Below are positions 1 to 50,314 of a stretch of 64,000 nucleotides of DNA, piece after piece. The DNA comes from Mustelus asterias (Eukaryota). A program made the translations under genes and the position numbers. How positions within the stretch are numbered: the stretch's first letter is position 1; each line of letters begins with the position of its first letter. The DNA is taken from assembly GCF_964213995.1 (NCBI RefSeq), contig NW_027590219.1, positions 372,001-436,000 on the forward strand, in the 5' to 3' direction. The notes under the pieces are model-generated. The model was not told the DNA's origin. It ran no database searches and saw only the letters and a list, made by a program, of their open reading frames with translations.

Positions 1-3000
1 TTTCCCCCCTCCGGCTGAACATCCGTAAGGTGTAACCCCCGGATATGAGTACCACTGGAGGGTTGCATCCCCCGGCAGGTGGACAAACCCAGGGGACGGT
101 GCCCTTATGCTTCAGTGTTTATTTTTTTTTTGTTGTGTACAGTTGTAGTGTTGTGTTAATGTTTGTAGATTTGTAGATTATGATTTGTAAATGGAGGTGT
201 ATTTTGAGGGCAATGCCTGGAAAACTGTAATTGATGATGGACCCTTCCGAAATGGAAGGTAGTAATTGATAAATGGATGGTGTTAGCCATCGGTAAAGTA
301 TTTTTCAGATTTGTTCTTTGTTTATTTGTAATTGTTTTGTAATATCGTGTTTGTACTAACGAATGGAAAATCTTTGCATTGTTTGTGGCCTGGGGGGTAT
401 CCCCCCCCCCCGGATAGAGTGACCCCCGGGGGGTGTGACATCCAGTTGGGGAAAGTGTCCGGGGCACCCAGAATAGTAACACCGGGGGGGTTTTGTTCTC
501 CGGGAGAAAAATTGGGAAGGCAGGCCGAATTGAGTATCCCGGAGAGCTTTTCCCACCGCCCCAGCCGAAAATCCGGAAGGCAGTCCGGATTGAGTAGGTT
601 CGGGGTGGTTTTCCTGTCCCCCCGCCTCCAGTCGAACATCCGTCAGGTGGAACCCCCGGACCTGAGTACCTCTGGAGGGTTGCATCCCCCGGCAGGGGAA
701 AAAACCCAGGAGGCGGTGCCCTGGAGGGCGGCGGATATGCTGCAATGTTTATTCTTGTAGTGTTGTACTAATGTTTGTCACTTTGTAGATTATGATTTGT
801 AATTGGAGGTGTATTGAGAGGGCAATGCCCTGGAAAACTGTAATTGACGATGAACCCTTCCGAAATGGGAGGTAGTAACTGATAAATGGATGGCGTTAGC
901 CATTGGTAATGTATTTTTTCACATTTGTTCTTTGTGTATTTGTAATTGTTTTGTATTAACGTATTTGTAATAAACAAAAAGAAACCAACATCTGTGAGTG
1001 GGAAAGATTGGATTGTCCAGCCAGTCCACCATATTGGCCGTTCGCTTTGCGTGTTGGCCAGTATAGTGTGCTCCAGGCAGGGGGCGGGCAGAGGATAAGG
1101 AGTTCAAGGCGGGCTTAATGCGCGCCTTGCGGTGAGCTTTTGGAAATGTGGCCGCTGGGAGGAACGCCTTGGTCGGCGTGAAGTTTCTGTTTCAAGTGCT
1201 TGGGTTCGTGACTTGTGCAAGAACTTTTTGTTTCGGCTGGGGCTTGTTGAATGCTGCTCTCGCTGGGATTCCTGTGCCTTGAAAGGCGTGGCCCAGGTAG
1301 ATGCAATCTCGGAAGACCCAAGCCAGGGAGGAGCCATTTGGGAACTATGGTTTCGGAAGGTTCAGCCGCGGAAGGTGTGACCCCAGACGGTGCAGCCCCA
1401 GTGGGTGTGATTTTGGAAGTTCTGGCCCGGAGTGGTGGACTTTGGAGGACTGTAGTTGAGCGTTGTCGACTTCGGACGGTGGAATGTTGATGGGCGAAGC
1501 ACTGGAAGGCGATGCCTCCAAAATGTTTCACAATTGTATGGTTGTTCATGGATTGTTTGTTATTGTAATATGTGGTTTTCCTGTTATGATAGTTGGTGGT
1601 TTGTTCCGGCCCCCGTCTATTTTCTTGCGTTATTTGTGGCCTGGGGGGCATCCCCCCCTGGATAAAGTCACCCTCGGGGGGTGTGACATCCACTTGGGGA
1701 AAGTTCTGGGTGGTGAAGCCCCGGATATAGTAACACCAGAGGGATTTTATTCTCCGGGAGAAAAATTGGGAAGGCAGGCCCGAACTGAGTACCCTGGAGA
1801 GACTCTCCCACCGCCCCGGCTGAAATTCCGGAAGGGATTCCGGATTGAGTAGGCGGGGTGGTTTCCCCCATTTCCCCCCTCCGGCTGAACATCCGTCAGG
1901 TGTAACCCCCGGATATGAGTACCACTGGAGGGTTGCATCCCCCGGCAGGTGGACAAACCCAGGGGACGGTGCCCTTATGCTTCAGTGTTTATTTTTTGTT
2001 GTGTATAGTTGTAGTGTTGTGTTAATGTTTGTAGATTTGTAGATTATGATTTGTAAATGGAGGTGTATTTTGAGGGCAATGCCCTGGAAAACTGTAATTG
2101 ACGATGAACCCTTCCGAAATGGAAGGTAGTAATTGATAAATGGATGGTGTTAGCCATCGGTAATGTATTTTTCAGATTTGTTCTTTGTTCATTTGTAATT
2201 GTTTTGTAATATCGTGTTTGTACTCACCAACGGAAAATCTTTGCATTGTTTGTGGCCTGGGGGGTATCCCCCCCCCCCCCCCCCCCCCTGGATAGAGTGA
2301 CCCCCGGGGGGTGTGACATCCAGTTGGGGAAAGTGTCCGGGGCACCCAGAGGGGTAACACCAGGGGGGTTTTGTTCTCCGGGAGAAAAATTGGGAAGGCA
2401 GGCCGAATTGAGTATCCCGGAGAGCTTTTCTCACCGCCCCAGCCGAAAATCCGGAAGGCAGTCCGGATTGAGTAGGTTCGGGGTGGTTTTCCTGTCCCCC
2501 CGCCTCCAGTCGAACATCCGTCAGGTGGAACCCCCGGACCTGAGTACCTCTGGAGGGTTGCATCCCCCGGCAGGGGAAAAACCCAGGGGACGGTGCCCTT
2601 ATGCTTCAGTGTTTATTTTTTTGTTGTGTACAGTTGTCGTGTTGTGTTCATAGATTTGTAGATTATGATTTGTAAATGGAGGTGTATTTTGAGGGCAATG
2701 CCCTGGAAAATTGTAATTGACGATGAACCCTTCCGAAATGGAAGGTAGTAACTGATAAATGGATGGCGTTAGCCATTGGTAATGTATTTTTTTCACATTT
2801 GTTCTTTGTGTATTTGTAACTGTTTTGCATTAACGTATTTGTAATAAACAAAAAGAAACCAACATCTGTGAGTGGGAAAGACTGGATTGTCCAGCCAGTC
2901 CACCATATTGGCCGTTCGCTTTGCGTGTTGGCCAGTATAGTGTGCTCCAGGCAGGGGGCGGGCAGAGGATAAGGAGTTCAAGGCGGGCTTAATGCGCGCC

Positions 3001-4746
3001 TTGCGGTGAGCTTTTGGAAATGTGGCCGCTGGGAGGAGCGTCTTGGTCGGCGTGAAGTTTCTGTTTCAAGTGCTTGGGTTCGTGACTTGTGCAAGAACTT
3101 TTTTGTTTCGGCTGGGGCTTGTTGAATGCTGCTCTCGCTGGGATTCCTGTGCCTTGAAAGGCATGGCCCAGGTAGATGCAATCTCGGAAGACCCAAGCCA
3201 GGGAGGAGCCATTTGGGAACTATGGTTTCGGAAGGTTCAGCCGCGGAAGGTGTGACCCCAGATGGTGCAGCCCTAGTGGGTGTGATTTTGGAAGTTCTGG
3301 CCCGGAGTGGTGGACTTTGGAGGACTGTAGTTGAGCGTTGTCGACTTCGGACGGTGGAATGTTGATGGGCGAAGCTCTGGAAGGCGATGCCTCCGAAATG
3401 TTTCACAATTGTATGGTTGTTTATGGATTGTTTGTTATTGTAATATGTGGTTTTCCTGTTATGATAGTTGGTGGTTTGTTCCGGCCCCCGTCTATTTTCT
3501 TGCGTTATTTGTGGCCTGGGGGGCATCCCCCCCTGGATGGAGTCACCCCCGGGGGGTGTGACATCCACTTGGGGAAAGTTCTGGGTGGTGAAGCCCCGGA
3601 CATAGTAACACCAGATGGATTTTATTCTCCGGGAGAAAAATTGGGAAGGCAGGCCCGAACTGAGTACCCTGGAGAGACTCTCCCACCACCCCGGCTGAAA
3701 TTCCCGAAGGGATTCCGGATTGAGTAGGCGGGGTGGTTTCCCCCATTTCCCCCCTCCGGCTGAACATCCGTAAGGTGTAACCCCCGGATATGAGTACCAC
3801 TGGAGGGTTGCATCCCCCGGCAGGTGGACAAACCCAGGGGACGGTGCCCTTATGCTTCAGTGTTTATTTTTTGTTGTGTATAGTTGTAGTGTTGTGTTAA
3901 TGTTTGTAGATTTGTAGCTTATGATTTGTAAATGGAGGTGTATTTTGAGGGCAATGCCCTGGAAAACTGTAATTGACGATGAACCCTTCCGAAATGGAAG
4001 GTAGTAATTGATAAATGGATGGTGTTAGCCATCGGTAATGTATTTTTCATGGATTGTTTGTTATTGTAATATGTGGTTATCCTGTTATGGTAGTTGGTGG
4101 TTTGTTCCGGCCCCCGTCTATTTTCTTGCGTTATTTGTGGCCTGGGGGGCATCCCCCCCTGGATAGAGTCACCCCCGGGGGGTGTGACATCCACTTGGGG
4201 AAAGTTCTGGGTGGTGAAGCCCCGGACATAGTAACACCAGAGGGATTTTTATTCTCCGGGAGAAAAATTGGGAAGGCAGGCCCGAACTGAGTACCCTGGA
4301 GAGACTCTCCCACCGCCCCGGCTGAAATTCCGGAAGGGATTCCGGATTGAGTAGGCGGGGTGGTTTCCCCATTTCCCCCCTCCGGCTGAACATCCGTAAG
4401 GTGTAACCCCCGGATATGAGTACCACTGGAGGGTTGCATCCCCCGGCAGGTGGACAAACCCAGGGGACGGTGCCCTTATGCTTCAGTGTTTATTTTTTGT
4501 TGTGTACAGTTGTAGTGTTGTGTTAATGTTTGTAGATTTGTAGATTATGATTTGTAAATGGAGGTGTATTTTGAGGGCAATGCCCTGGAAAACTAATTGA
4601 CGATGAACCCTTCCGAAATGGAAGGTAGTAACTGATAAATGGATGGCGTTAGCCATTGGTAATGTATTTTTTTCACATTTGTTCTTTGTGTATTTGTAAT
4701 TGTTTTGTATTAACGTATTTGTAATAAACAAAAAGAAACCAACATC
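1..4746 (+). repeat. Complex tandem array, ~1.87-kb unit (partial 1-992, 993-2866, 2867-4746) built from a unique module C plus duplicated GC-rich (G) and AT-rich (B) modules; possibly the amplified 3' portion of a non-LTR retroelement
   Basis: The junction AATAAACAAAAAGAAACCAACATC ends at 992, 2866 and 4746; module C starts TGTGAGTGGGAAAG at 993 and 2867; the G and B modules each occur six times (some partial). Confidence 0.9.
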
Positions 4747-4755
4747 AGAGAGGTT

Positions 4756-4828
4756 GTTTCTGTAGTGAAGTGGTTGTCACGTTTGCCTGACACGCGAAAG
4801 GTCCCCGGGTCAGAACCGGGCAGGAATG
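4756..4828 (+). tRNA. tRNA-Val-derived sequence (anticodon GAC), probably a pseudogene
   Basis: GTTTCTGTAGTGAAGTGGTTGTCACGTTTGCCTGACACGCGAAAGGTCCCCGGGTCAGAACCGGGCAGGAATG closely follows vertebrate tRNA-Val. Acceptor, anticodon and T stems pair, but the T-loop/B-box is altered (GTCAGAA) and there is no T4 terminator immediately downstream. Confidence 0.8.
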
Positions 4829-4829
4829 T

Positions 4830-5708
4830 TAATTTGTTAATTCCAGCATCTGAAAGTGGGAAGGGGGAGGAAGGTGAGCTGTTGCCTGCCTGCCTGCTGT
4901 CCGGCCTGCCTGCCTGCCTGTCGTCTGGCCTGCCTGCCTGTCGTCTGGCCTGCCTGCCGTCTGGCCTGCCTGTCTTCCGTCCGTCCGCCCACTGGAGGGT
5001 GCTCTCTCCCTGGAGGGAGAGAGGACACGGAGTGACTTTCTTTCTTTTTTCTTTCCATCTCTGGGAGGGAGGACTGCACGTTTCAACATCGAGGGACTGA
5101 GTGGTTGGGCTGGTGCCCTCATCATCAGAAGGTCGGTGCCTGAAAGGGATGGGGGGGTGAAGTAAATTCAGACTGTTTTTTCCATCGGCGGGCGGGCGGG
5201 CGAAGACACCCCGGACTTGAACTGTTTGCGCCCAAAAGGGCTGGAGGAGTAAAGTCCCCCACCCACTGCTGCTGCCCCCAACACCGGCGCCCCCAACACC
5301 GGCACCCCCTCCCCTCTTTCCCCCTGACTGGGGCACCGGCCCCCCTCCGTGCCTTGTCCCTCGTCCTCCCTCCTGCTCCTCCGACCTCCTCTCTCGCTCC
5401 GGGGAGAGAGCACCTAGATCCCCATCCACCTACCCTACCCTCCCTTATTTTTCCCTCCTCTTATACGCCCTGCCGTGGCAGAGCCTTCTCGGCCCACCTA
5501 TGCGGGCGTGGCAGCTGCCAGAGCCCCCGCCGCTCCCAAGGCCCTGCCACCTTTTTCGTTGCTCACGCGGCAGCTCGGGGTGAAGTGCTACGCCCACCCC
5601 GACATGTCCATCGAGGCCTGTGTCAAGGCAATGGCTGGGGTTGTCGGCCCCTCAGCCATTGTCGCGGCCTCTAAGATGTACGGCCGGGCCGTATTCTTTT
5701 TGAAGGCC
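4830..5708 (+). mobile_element. Tx1-clade LINE 5' end: 5' UTR plus ORF1 N-terminus (5475-5708), 3'-truncated
   Basis: Translation LLTRQLGVKC..MSIEACVKAMAGVVGPSAIVAASKMYGRAVFFLK matches the Tx1 ORF1 N-terminal motif; similarity stops at ~5708. The 5' boundary is uncertain. Confidence 0.75.
4884..4985 (+). repeat. Imperfect (GCCT)n microsatellite
   Basis: Repeated gcctgcctgcct / gtctggcct units. Confidence 0.85.
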
Positions 5709-5799
5709 ACCCACCCGCCACATTTATCATTCCCCGCGCGCCGCCCTCTACCTTGTATTGTTCTCGCTTCCAAGTTGAAACCGTCCGTCCGCCGCCGCC

Positions 5800-5965
5800 A
5801 TTACCCGCACTGCGCATGCTTCAGGTCCCGCCCCTCATTCACTCCGATTGGTTGGAGGACCAGCCGCTCCCGCTCGGTCCTCCAGCCCCGCCCCCTCTTC
5901 CTATTGGTCCGGAGCTGGCGTCAATCAGCTCCCGGGCATTGTGATGTGGAGCATGCGCAGTGTCA
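5800..5965. promoter_or_regulatory. CpG-rich promoter cassette upstream of ZNF 6956-8104
   Basis: NRF1-like TGCGCATGC and GCATGCGCA, reverse CCAAT boxes (ATTGG x2), GC boxes (CCGCCC). Confidence 0.6.
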
Positions 5966-6955
5966 TTGCTGTCCTTGGCGCTTGTTTGTCCCGGAGAAGC
6001 GGAGTCAGCGTTAGGCGGTGGCTGGGAGGATTTGGAAACACTTTGTGGATCCGCAAACCCTTCAGAATCATTGTCAGCTCCCTGGTTTGCAGCTGCGGGG
6101 CTTCTCCCTCCCTCCCTCCCGGGAACAGGCCCAGGTTAACGGCCCCATCCTGGCTCAGCCACTGGAGGATGGTTCACATCAGAGGATAGGGGAGGGGGAC
6201 AATAAATAAGAGGTTACACTTTGGCCTCAAATCAATGAGGGTTCTGATCTCTGGGAAGGAAGGAAACCCTGGGAGTTGGGCGGGAAGGATTCACAAACAC
6301 CCGCTGGAGGCCCCAACATCCCCAATAAGACCCATTGGTTTTATTGTCAGTCTGCAGACAGGAGCTGGAGAACTGAACCCAGACAGAGGAGAGGGAGGGA
6401 GAAAACTGGGAGTGGAGGAAAGAAATGGTAGAGATGGGTTTGGATTTCAGCCCAGGGAAGAGGGAGAGTGTGTGGGACGGAGATTTACAGATTTGGGGGA
6501 ACAAGAGAGGAAAAAATGTTCCAGACGAACTAGAATTGTCTGTTCAGAGTTTCTATCGTGTTCTGACAGTGATGACTTTTCTAAACTGTTTTTACAGGAT
6601 ATTGGAAGTGAAAGATTGGCAGACAGAAAACTCAAACCGGACATCACATCTGACAAAGTCATTCAGTTCCTTCGGAGCTGAATATCATTGGTCTTTGAAT
6701 ATAGAAAGAGAAATATTTGTCTGTTCTGCCTGTGGGCAAAGAAATTAAACATCAGTGTGACCGGAAAAGCATCGAGACAAACACACACCCGAGTGAGAGT
6801 GTTCCAGTGAACTGAATGTGGAAAGAGCTTTAACCTGTTACACAGCCTGAAAAAACATCACAGTTCACAGCAGGGTGAAACTACGTGTATGTTGTGTGTG
6901 TGGATGAGGCTTGAACTGATCATCCAACCTGGAGAAACACAAGGGCACCAGCACC

Positions 6956-8104
6956 ATGGAGAAACCGTGGAAATGTGTGGAGTGCGGGAAGGGATTCGGT
7001 TTCCCATCACAACTGGAAGTTCATCGGCGCAGTCACACTGGGGAGAGACCGTTCACCTGCTCTGTTTGTGGGAAGGGATTCACCCATTCATACAACCTTC
7101 TGACTCACCGACGGGTTCACACTGGGGAGAGGCCGTTCACCTGCCCTGTGTGTGGGAAGGGATTCACTCGCTCATCCCACATTGTGACACACCAACTTGT
7201 TCACACAGATGAGAGAATGTTTCCATGTTCTGACTGTGAGAAGAGTTTTAAATGCAAAAAAGATCTGCTGACGCACCAACGTATTCACACTGGGGAGAGA
7301 CCATTCACCTGCTCTGCGTGTGGGAAAGGATTCATTCAGTCATCCCACTTGCAGACACATCAACTTGTTCACTCTGATAACAAACTTTTTAATTGTTCCC
7401 ACTGTGAGAAGAGCTTTAAAAATAAAAAAGATCTGCTGACGCACCAATATGCTCACACTGGGGAGAGGCCATTCACCTGCTGTGTGTGTGGGAAGGGATT
7501 CAGCCGTCCATCTGCCCTATTGAACCACCAGAGAATTCACACTGGGGAGAGGCCCTTCACCTGCTCAGACTGTGGGAAGGGATTCATTAATTCATCCAAC
7601 CTTCTGATACACCAGCAACTCCACACAGGGGATCGACCGTTCACCTGCTCTGAATGTGGGAAGGGATTCACCCGTTCATACAACCTTCTGACACACCAGC
7701 AGGTTCACAGTGAGGAGAGGCCATTCACTTGCTCCGTGTGTGGGAAGCGATTCACTCGTTCATCCAACCTATTGAATCACCAGCGAGTTCACACTGGGGA
7801 GAGGCCGTTCACCTGCTCCACGTGTGGGAAAGGATTCAGTCAGTCATCCAACCTGCTGACACATCAGAGAATTCACAGTGGGGAGAGGCCATTTACCTGC
7901 TCTGTCTGTGGGAAGGGATTTTCTCATTTATCTTATCTTCTGAAACACCAGCGAGTTCACACTGGGGAGAGGCCGTTCACCTGTAATGTCTGTGGAAAGG
8001 GATTTGTTCAGTCATCCCACCTGCTAACACACCGGCGAGTTCACAAACGACTGCAAGGTTTGGATTCTCCACTTATCGATGCTGTTAATCATATCCAGGA
8101 CTGA
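6956..8104 (+). CDS. C2H2 zinc-finger protein, 13 fingers, 382 aa, no effector domain
   Basis: Intact ORF with CxxC-12-HxxxH repeats and TGERPF linkers; ACCATGG Kozak context; upstream acceptor TTTTACAG|GATATT at ~6597. Confidence 0.9.
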   Translation: MEKPWKCVECGKGFGFPSQLEVHRRSHTGERPFTCSVCGKGFTHSYNLLTHRRVHTGERPFTCPVCGKGFTRSSHIVTHQLVHTDERMFPCSDCEKSFKCKKDLLTHQRIHTGERPFTCSACGKGFIQSSHLQTHQLVHSDNKLFNCSHCEKSFKNKKDLLTHQYAHTGERPFTCCVCGKGFSRPSALLNHQRIHTGERPFTCSDCGKGFINSSNLLIHQQLHTGDRPFTCSECGKGFTRSYNLLTHQQVHSEERPFTCSVCGKRFTRSSNLLNHQRVHTGERPFTCSTCGKGFSQSSNLLTHQRIHSGERPFTCSVCGKGFSHLSYLLKHQRVHTGERPFTCNVCGKGFVQSSHLLTHRRVHKRLQGLDSPLIDAVNHIQD

Positions 8105-24398: not shown

Positions 24399-25526
24399 AG
24401 CGGCTGCTCAGGAATCCGCTCCTCCAGCCGTATGACTTCAGGTGGCTGGCGGAGAGGAGGGCTGTGGACGCCGGGGTGACCAGAATCGGGGATGCGCTCG
24501 ATGGCGGAGGGGCTGGCTGAGCGCGCGGGGACGACCGTCCGGCACGCGGCCAAAGTCTTCCTAGACCTTAGGACGGTCGTGCTCGGCCCCGAAACTGCAC
24601 GCAAACTCGAGACGGCGCAGGCGTGCGGTGGGATCCTGCCCGAGCGTTCCCCTGTTCGGACGGAATTCCACATTGGCCCAAAACCTCAATCCCCCTCCTC
24701 AACCCCCACAGCCTGAGCCGCCTCGCGGAAATGTCCTCCGTGCCTTTTTCTACCGCGCGGAGGCGTTTCCTGTGCGGGCTGCTGCTGCACACCTTCCACT
24801 ACCGCCTCCTCGCCTGTCGCCCGGATACACCTTGGCGGGCCTTGTTGCCGCCGGGCGGCAGAGATCCCCGCTGGAGCTCCCTCTACGGAGGGATCTCCCC
24901 CAATTACGTCGGGGACCTGGGGTGGAGGGTGATGCATGCAGCAGTGCCACACAACCGTAGGATTCACTGGTTCACGGGCTCCGAAGACTGCCCTTTCTGC
25001 GGCCTTGTGGAGTCCGTGGACCATGTCTATGTTGTGTGTCCTAGGCTGCACTCCCTTTATGTTTTCCTAAAAAACCTTTTATTGATGTTTTGTTTGCACA
25101 TCAGTCCCACGCTCCTGATCTACGGACACCCGGTGCGGAGAGGGGAGGGTCGGGATGGCGACCTCCTCGTGAACCTGCTCCTGGGCCTGGCGAAACGCGC
25201 CATTTACCGGTACAGGCAGTGGGCGATCAAGGGGGCCGTCCATCCTGACTGTCTGCCCCTCTACCACGACTACGTTCGCGGCCGGGTGTCCCTGGAGAGG
25301 GAGCATGCGGTGTCCACGGGCGCGGTTGACGCCTTCCGCGCCCGCTGGGCACCGCAGGGGTTGGGGTGCATTATTGACCCTGACAATCACATTTTAATTT
25401 GATGTTTTTAAGTTTCCTTTGTACTTTGATTTCTGTTCGGGCTGTTCCCCCTCCTTTTGGGGAGCTGCCCCTTTTACTTTGTCCTGATTTAATCTGAGTT
25501 TGTTTATTTGGTTTGACCTAAAAAGA
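24399..25526 (+). mobile_element. 5'-truncated Tx1-clade LINE (ORF2 C-terminus with CCHC/zf-RVT, 3' UTR)
   Basis: GDLGWRVMH..CPFCGLVESVDHVYVVC..RARWAP (ORF 24623-25402); ends AAAAAGA; 11-bp TSD GG(C/T)CACATCTG at 24388-24398 and 25527-25537. Confidence 0.88.
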
Positions 25527-25726
25527 GGTCACATCTGGGAGGAAATCAATGTTTCCCCCTTTCTATTTCTTTTCTCATTCTGGGGGAAATTGGGGACTTG
25601 CAGCAACTGAAGGGAAAGGAAGTGAATCCAGTCTGTACATTCCACACATTGTTAGTCCAGTCAGATAGACATATATCTGTCTGGCCGCCTGCATGGAGAT
25701 TTCCAGCTCTCTGTGTCCAGGACAGG

Positions 25727-49716: not shown

Positions 49717-50314
49717 TGAAGTTGGAGTCTGTGTGTGAAGTTTGAATCTGTGTGTGAAGTTTGAGTCTGTGTGTGAAGTTTGAGTCTGTGGTGAAGTTTG
49801 AGTCTGTGTGTGAAGTTTGAGTGTGTGCGTGAAGTTTGAGTCTGTGGTGAAGTTTGAGTCTGTGGTGAAGTTTGAGTCTTTGTGTGAAGTTTGAGTCTGT
49901 GTGTGAAGTTTGAGTCTGTGGTGAAGTTTGAGTCTGTGTGTGAAGTTTGAGTCTGTGTGTGAAGTTTGAGTCTGTGGTGAAGTTTGAGTCTGTGGTGAAG
50001 TTTGAGTCTGTGTGTGAAGTTTGAGTCTGTGGTGAAGTTTGAGTCTGTGGTGAAGTTGGAGTCTGTGGTGAAGTTTGAGTCTTTGTGTGAAGTTTGAGTC
50101 TGTGTGTGAAGTTTGAGTCTGTGTGTGAAGTTGGAGTCTGTGTGTGAAGTTGGAGTCTGTGGTGAAGTTTGAGTCTGTGGTGAAGTTGGAGTCTGTGGTG
50201 AAGTTTGAGTCTTTGTGTGAAGTTTGAGTCTGTGTGTGAAGTTTGAGTCTGTGGTGAAGTTGGAGTCTGTGGTGAAGTTTGAGTCTGTGTGTGAAGTTTG
50301 AGTCTGTGGTGAAG
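49717..50314. repeat. Minisatellite, 18/20-bp unit TGAAGTTTGAGTCTGTG(G/TGT), ~31 copies
   Basis: Contiguous tandem units without spacers. Confidence 0.95.

Follow-up and report, generated by a model that had tools for sequence, protein, structure and literature searches.

What is the array of hairpins with GAA and AGUA motifs that occupies positions 1-4738 of a 64,000-nt stretch of Mustelus asterias DNA (C187:372,001-436,000; hereafter the window)? The window lies in a cluster of C2H2 zinc-finger genes, in a genome of 3.68 Gb, and a preliminary description made from the letters alone had taken the array for a candidate undescribed structured RNA. Our analysis indicates that the array is almost certainly not a stand-alone RNA gene but the folded 3' half of a non-coding, non-autonomous retroelement of 1.3-1.9 kb, of which the last three of five tandem copies fall within the window. 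We further propose, with a probability of roughly 45%, that the GAA/AGUA loops in the 3' half of this element act as protein-docking sites, which capture the reverse transcriptase (RT) of a co-resident long interspersed element (LINE).

The array starts upstream of the window at C187:367,374, and 4.6 kb of it precedes the window. Each of the five units starts with a common C head and ends with the same A-rich tail, and a 15-bp duplication separates one unit from the next. The units differ from one another by internal duplication of the G and B modules. The part inside the window is laid out as follows.

1-984, + strand: 3' part of tandem unit 3 of 5, with the end of G1 (1-109), B (110-359), G2 (379-722) and the terminal B (to 984); the unit begins upstream of the window
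985-999, + strand: 15-bp target-site duplication, comprising the end of a zinc-finger exon 1 and a likely GT splice donor (994-999), a role suggested by the consensus and the gene layout
1000-2858, + strand: tandem unit 4, with the C head (1000-1545), a linker, G1 (1629-1979), B (1980-2230), G2 (2246-2603) and the terminal B
2859-2873, + strand: second 15-bp target-site duplication
2874-4738, + strand: tandem unit 5, with C (2874-3420), G1 (3504-3854), a short B, a linker, G1 (4130-4480) and the terminal B (4481-4738)
4739-4752, + strand: third duplication, degenerate, upstream of a tRNA-Val-like/LINE insertion (4755-5715)

The C head of unit 4 is non-coding and has CCAAT- and GC-box-like words within its first 130 nt, and its terminal B closes with a polyadenylation-signal-like hexamer and a short A-rich tail. 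A 19-mer from the G domain has 390 exact copies in the genome, and at least 150 copies of C are 95-100% identical. Dispersed copies are truncated at many points on the 5' side and have a fixed, A-rich 3' end. Their target-site duplications measure 10-18 bp, and those at zinc-finger sites 15 bp. The 5' truncations, the A-rich 3' end and the 10-18 bp duplications show that the template was + strand RNA, and the family is therefore copied by target-primed reverse transcription. A + strand RNA with several GAA/AGUA internal loops, as the preliminary description had supposed, has thus existed.

Young full-length copies lie in sense orientation directly behind a GT donor-like site of zinc-finger exon 1, often in tandem. 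The loci counted here were chosen by element-based searches and are biased to young copies; among them, 112 of 114 C heads follow the target or a variant with one mismatch, and the target follows 89 of 139 element 3' ends. Exon-1-type sequence precedes 44 of the 112 heads (11 of them in a subfamily with a transduced 5' end), and the tail of a previous unit precedes the other 68. An insertion regenerates the target behind itself, which leads to tandem arrays. The target pattern occurs exactly 147 times, and at 19 of 30 loci examined the site is empty, with the sequence running on into a pyrimidine-rich stretch. A consensus GT donor marks the site, promoter-like words precede it, and an AG acceptor followed by a zinc-finger exon lies a few kb further on; we therefore read it as the donor of exon 1, and the target is likely the exon-1 splice donor of C2H2 zinc-finger genes. 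The subfamily that does not sit at zinc-finger sites (C3, C19, C26) carries a long terminal repeat (LTR)-like head together with the last ~30 nt of exon 1 and the donor, a 5' transduction which indicates that transcripts starting upstream have been retrotransposed.

Several observations were made alongside. In C19, C26, C13 and C16 the LTR-like head is 225 nt long, with TATA-like and polyadenylation-like words. Away from zinc-finger clusters, this subfamily forms tandem arrays that extend over 14 kb and carry additional short repeats of the B end. Loci L190, L112, L151, L154 and L212 show further short insertions at the zinc-finger donor site used by the element, as well as a mid-age subfamily that begins at position 132 of C, with a different 170-nt piece in front of it.

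The choice of target appears to be inherited by the element lineage. Target classes were assigned to 152 of 171 element 3' ends. In a lineage with a 2-nt deletion, 22 of 23 ends are at TCC sites and none is at a zinc-finger or CC site; the 22 ends represent 13 places, some of which probably duplicate a single event. Where the deletion is lacking, the ends are distributed over zinc-finger (74), CC (18) and TCC sites (10, of which 7 belong to the old subfamily described below), and another 27 ends have no clear lineage marker. The two lineages with different site preference are 98-99% identical. Because they are nearly identical and non-coding, the preference most likely resides in the 3' read-through of the RNA, which would pair with the nicked target and prime there.

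An intact LINE, with an ORF1 (open reading frame 1) of 762 amino acids and an ORF2 of 1304 amino acids encoding an APE endonuclease and an RT (EN/RT), is abundant in the same clusters. Of its 3' ends, 18 of 21 examined are in zinc-finger exon 1, and 7 are at the exact nucleotide used by the element. This EN/RT LINE is therefore the likely helper; from its sequence features we take it to be Tx1-like. No match was scored in a homologue search with the C-terminal part of its ORF2. Intact LINEs with the 1304-residue ORF2 also stand in tandem within zinc-finger exon 1 (e.g., C90:1,856,400-1,870,300 and C75:16,071,800-16,093,000); their 5' ends mimic the target exon, and some have a tRNA-like head. 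The gene-targeting LINE looks like an undescribed family in its own right. At window positions 25,500-25,545, a helper-LINE 3' end is joined to another zinc-finger donor-like site.

A protein-coding origin of the element was rejected. None of five element ORFs matched Pfam, the ORF of an old copy had no match among 1.84 billion representatives, the helper ORF2 gave no significant tblastn match to the unit, and Atlas scores were sub-threshold (0.76-0.77). No RT ORF is joined to any copy examined at young, old or ancient loci. Nor does the element have a head derived from tRNA, 7SL or 5S RNA (the tRNA at window position 4755 belongs to the next insertion), and Rfam revealed no head derived from U1 or U2 small nuclear RNA (snRNA). 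The T-runs within C argue against transcription by RNA polymerase III. A pattern scan of metagenomes returned 0 matches, and a search of sequencing runs listed no RNA run as a carrier.

The family is both young and ancient. An old subfamily, 75-83% identical to the young copies, is dispersed, and several of its members (L226, L227, L228, L233 and L234) lie ~50 nt upstream of the Myb-like ORF of a DNA transposon, presumably of Harbinger type; we assume the Myb-like label as well. These old copies may have been amplified together with the transposon. Ancient copies, mostly 62-79% identical to the old subfamily, have the same layout and no attached RT ORF. As a separate observation, a second, shorter G-like hairpin domain is present in the B region of ancient copies (L272-L291), which are often inside an LTR-like repeat. 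Run contigs of another organism (F) cover C, G and part of B, and the pieces show 18 differences in 515 nt and 43 differences plus 23 gaps in 469 nt, which indicates that the family is not confined to the source species. The run of organism D covers the target and next to none of the element; coverage shares below 0.2, as for organisms D and E, are not evidence.

The four hairpins quoted in the preliminary description were all found at their positions. The stability of single hairpins was scored as z against dinucleotide shuffles.

498-544, + strand: G2 hairpin 1, GAA 506-508 opposite AGUA 533-536 in canonical geometry, z -5.0
552-611 (quoted as 563-600), + strand: G2 hairpin 2, GAA 567-569 opposite AGUA 593-596, z -5.1
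625-678, + strand: G2 hairpin 3, GAA 634-636 and AGUA 665-668, letters kept and closing pairs non-canonical, z -1.2
2102-2135, + strand: B hairpin, GAA 2106-2108 opposite AGUA 2128-2131, next pair C.U, z -3.0 (for 2103-2134)
4130-4480, + strand: one G domain, a long basal helix around four hairpins, built from five repeats with one AGUA arm and one GAA(A) arm each, z -2.5

Hairpins 498-544, 563-600 and 2103-2134 fold alone, with GAA opposite AGUA in an internal loop. In these three, the first base of GAA and the final base of AGUA adjoin the outer stem, as a sheared G.A pair needs; AGUA thus faces GAA within a helix, with G.A beside one stem, in hairpin 1 (G2 form), hairpin 2 and the B hairpin, the last of which is the nearest match here to the textbook sarcin-ricin layout. 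Hairpin 625-678 and its G1 twin are no stabler than shuffles (z -1.2 and -1.3) and have pyrimidine.C mismatches beside the motif. The G1 form of hairpin 1 (4255-4303) has z -0.6, and in most G2 copies a fourth, weaker hairpin has lost both motif halves. The preliminary count of three clear and one weaker hairpin per G module, or about ten per unit, is reached only if non-canonical forms are included; the feature is real, with fewer canonical loops than had been stated.

In a fold-based scan, nine AGUA sites passed on the + strand of window positions 1-4750, one on the + strand of the other 59,250 bases and none on their - strand. Two modules of 620 nt contained 1 and 2 passing sites against shuffle means of 0.016 and 0.022 (1000 shuffles each), showing that the motif is enriched beyond chance. 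The whole G domain folds better on the + strand (z -2.5 and -2.8) than on the - strand (z -1.5), with its four hairpins closed by the basal helix. In the ancient copies, read by eye, an AGUA arm and a GAA(A) arm recur together five times across the G domain; in young copies the motif has been lost from the basal helix and, in G2, from the first hairpin. The motif is present 4-6 times per module. Among the helices that we drew, the long-range helix P5 paired least well (81%) and is probably an error; in its place, the ancient copies point to a fourth local hairpin. Rfam gave no match to the array at the gathering score and only chance-level matches at E<10, in agreement with the preliminary statement that no named RNA family fits. 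A hammerhead, an internal ribosome entry site, a selenocysteine insertion sequence (SECIS) and other Rfam families were rejected for want of a covariance-model match; judged by eye, the letters also lack the conserved G8 of the hammerhead core and the second GA in register of SECIS.

Is the motif maintained by selection? Among 225 distinct G copies from 57 arrays, shared variants occur at 2 of the 21 motif positions, at 39 of the 126 positions in stems and at 85 of the 164 remaining ones (p=0.01 and p=0.008). Singletons fall at 9 motif, 54 stem and 57 other positions in the same copies, so that the motif rate is not lower. Across the majority sequences of five subfamilies, 1 of 28 motif positions varies, compared with 145 of 477 positions outside the motif (p=0.001). 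Occurrences of these letters that are not opposed in the fold vary at 7 of 20 positions (p=0.006 against the 1 of 28). Variable hairpin positions coincide with predicted bulges, and AGUA arms, read by eye, are retained in copies 62-79% identical to the old subfamily. The closing pair of the B hairpin is C-G in all four distinct ancient forms recovered with a sequence pattern and U-A in old and young copies, and the motif is kept despite this switch. Two of the four ancient forms have AAA in place of GAA, and AAA was also derived as a variant of the sarcin-ricin motif according to part of PMC1865062. Flanking stems are 90.8% paired across 27 copies, with mostly one-sided wobble changes and no excess over shuffles. 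Selection on the GAA/AGUA motif is likely rather than proven. The preliminary idea of a structured RNA survives insofar as the motif letters are kept above their surroundings; the array itself is a series of tandem insertions of a site-preferring retroelement, in whose five-fold repeat the G hairpins are paralogous arms.

Differences that exchange a Watson-Crick pair for G-U on the + strand, which had been noted between diverged copies, do exist. However, the asymmetry of G.U over A.C is weak: 11 versus 14 for variants common to at least three arrays, which is not significant in young copies; 16 versus 6 for variants in at least 4 of 27 diverged rows (p=0.05); and 15 versus 16 for singletons. 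It is borderline at best.

In the mechanism that we propose, transcription would start from the RNA polymerase II promoter of the host gene or from an upstream copy, and the donor would be left unspliced. The enzyme would be provided in trans by the intact EN/RT LINE, which shares its end nucleotide with the element. Bases read past the 3' end would pair with the nicked target, and each lineage would prefer sites like its source. The loops might adopt the bulged-G (loop E) fold and bind a protein of the LINE or one associated with the ribosome, as Alu does with SRP9/14; this step is the least certain. The docking role is predicted by likeness to the SRP9/14 domain of Alu, and we hold it tentatively. 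A bolder extension, which we regard as doubtful, is that the element represents an ancient, unnamed class of promoter-less retroelements with a multivalent loop-E hijacking module. The first donor of a gene family would then be a harmless, self-renewing landing pad, and the 3' read-through bases would reprogram the target, letting lineages hop without a change of enzyme.

Several results weigh against this interpretation. No ligand of the loops was identified. The preliminary description had named a lack of significant covariation among homologs as a refutation, and covariation in 27 homologous copies was no better than in shuffles (65 hand-drawn pairs; 0.134 vs 0.129, 53/500). RNAalifold consensus energies are about equal on both strands. 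With the two subfamilies that first revealed the motif left out, the comparison of subfamily majorities becomes 1 of 28 versus 80 of 467 (p=0.065). The canonical closing pair next to the sheared G.A is not found in every copy: in hairpin 1 an A.C pair adjoins the motif in 13 of 27 copies, and in hairpin 3 the adjoining pair is pyrimidine.C. The 3' untranslated region of the helper LINE is unlike G or B, and only the A-run is alike, so that there is no LINE-shared 3' tail as in a classical short interspersed element (SINE). A parent LINE with a G/B tail, from which the element could have arisen by internal deletion, was not found at 20 dispersed young, 15 old and 20 ancient loci, taken from the best 40-150 candidates per search. 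For the donor role, a search for spliced retrocopies gave one ambiguous match. No joint of exon 1 to exon 2 was present among the joints listed from contigs of four sequencing runs, where the second exon of the chosen gene is broken by another repeat; these contigs are of unrecorded kind and uninformative on strand or level.

Four other explanations were weighed; from more to less probable, they rank roughly as an RNA export or stability element, a neutral by-product, an enhancer acting as DNA and a decoy for host proteins. The structured domain could be a constitutive transport or stability element for an unspliced polymerase II transcript, with its unused 5' splice site and intronic 3' end, rather than a docking site for RT. 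Every subfamily lies close to the polymerase II promoter of some multicopy sequence, be it zinc-finger exon 1, the Myb-like transposon ORF (on its 5' side) or the LTR-like repeat; the T-runs in C speak against polymerase III, and the internal duplication of G-B in many units suggests that dosage matters. However, known export elements rely on other internal loops, Rfam gives no match to an export family or an element for nuclear expression (ENE), and the domain is older than splice-donor targeting, so we consider this unlikely. Similarly unlikely is that the loops are a neutral by-product of the same retroelement, in which a unit with a self-complementary core was duplicated five-fold to give G, and the letters are preserved by homogenisation or low mutability. 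Neighbouring units of that kind would pair automatically, and G, the B hairpin and repeats in C derive from one short ancestral repeat. The lack of significant covariation, the p of 0.065 in the motif test free of ascertainment and the non-canonical closings in several loops also fit this explanation. It does not account for the greater variability of these letters at unopposed positions (7/20 vs 1/28), for a singleton rate at motif positions that is not lower, or for the B hairpin that retains its motif while the closing pair toggles between C-G and U-A.

In a third explanation, the repeats act as DNA, and a CpG-rich array of transcription-factor sites drives the next tandem copy, with folding incidental. 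In its favour, G has a high GC content, is repeated and precedes the next unit, and its short conserved words could be such sites. This explanation is very improbable, considering that the conserved letters are those facing each other in the fold, that many stem changes are G.U-tolerated on the + strand (16 versus 6) and that single dispersed copies bear the same domain. The least probable explanation, to which we attach hardly any weight, is that host selection keeps the RNA as a multivalent decoy for TFIIIA-like zinc-finger proteins. The loop E of 5S rRNA binds the zinc fingers of TFIIIA, and the host genes encode C2H2 arrays. Against this, the copies are of recent origin (95-100% identity) and their number differs between loci, old inserted copies decay at motif and stem positions as elsewhere, and subfamilies have moved between targets. 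Nothing was found in support of the host function, as decoy or localisation RNA, that had been suggested at the outset. We therefore retain the docking of a LINE enzyme or ribosome-associated protein as the preferred interpretation of the loops.

Downstream of the array, the following context was recorded.

4755-5715, + strand: tRNA-Val-like head (4755-4829) joined to a 5' portion of the helper LINE, with an ORF1 fragment at ~5450-5705, at the same target as the array
6598-8045, + strand: adjacent C2H2 zinc-finger exon with its AG acceptor at 6596-6597, outside the element

The block at window positions 4755-6600, which comprises the tRNA-Val head, the LINE ORF1 fragment, a promoter-like region and the zinc-finger exon, is near-identical at 10 of 10 loci examined, indicating that the gene unit was duplicated as a block. 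The exon 1 of the array itself may belong to a rearranged gene. At 49,717-50,314, 32 copies of a 19-nt tandem repeat adjoin a zinc-finger donor-like site on the - strand and resemble amplified exon-1 sequence.

How does the element compare with known systems? The closest is crocodilian SINEU. Like SINEU, the element here is inserted in tandem and shares its target with a LINE, presumably of Tx1 type. According to passages of PMC4494074, SINEU is non-autonomous and is credited to Tx1 LINEs because of a common target preference, with tandem insertions flanking a target duplication. The same passages describe it as lacking a polymerase III promoter, propose transcription from flanking promoters and report 5' extensions. 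However, SINEU has U1/U2 snRNA heads and prefers a Mariner transposon (PMC4494074, in part), whereas our element has no snRNA head, prefers the exon-1 donor region of a protein-coding gene family and has a repeated loop-E domain. The helper resembles the Tx1-clade LINEs in being a two-ORF EN/RT LINE in tandem at a multicopy target. The Tx1-clade members Tx1L, Keno, Kibi, Koshi and Tx1-Mar target transposons, snRNA and 5S genes, satellites and microsatellites, and a zinc-finger gene exon is absent among the targets listed in the passages of PMC4494074. The shark SINEs listed in part of PMC3747384 are tRNA-headed only. No zinc-finger-donor-targeting element or retroelement loop-E array is described in the literature searched; Repbase and Dfam were outside the search and may already name the family. 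Site-preferring LINEs and their passengers are otherwise listed at RNA genes, microsatellites and transposons. Here, both the LINE and its passenger aim at exon 1 of the zinc-finger family, with the passenger just inside a likely intron. This suggests that protein-coding genes are used as a safe harbour.

In L1, site choice is shaped by how far the 3' end of the RNA is complementary to the nicked target (PMC3649969, in part), as we propose here. L1 pairs poly(A) with T-tracts according to the same part of that source, whereas lineage-specific non-A bases appear to set the preference of our element. The two near-identical lineages with different sites are thus a natural test of RNA-templated target choice, which bears on programmable retrotransposon insertion. 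The AGUA/GAA combination is one of four sequences derived for the sarcin-ricin motif in part of PMC1865062, and its strand register fits hairpins 1, 2 and B. It differs here in that the GAA strand is 5' of the AGUA strand, the flanking pairs are often non-canonical and the RNA is that of a transposon. Taken together, this is a young-and-ancient retroelement family with an unusual target, a lineage-inherited site choice and a loop-E scaffold that is probably selected. Like SVA, which is composite, non-autonomous and transcribed from host promoters, with a 5' transduction of MAST2 (passages of PMC4494074), and like Alu, whose RNA docks on the ribosome through SRP9/14 (bioRxiv 10.1101/2024.12.16.628748, in part), it would rely on a folded RNA that reaches a LINE enzyme in trans. 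Unlike them, it has neither a 7SL/Alu domain nor a poly(A) tail, and its docking is proposed by analogy. If the loops matter, they would represent another route, beside SRP9/14 and tRNA or 5S heads, by which non-autonomous RNAs win a LINE enzyme in trans.

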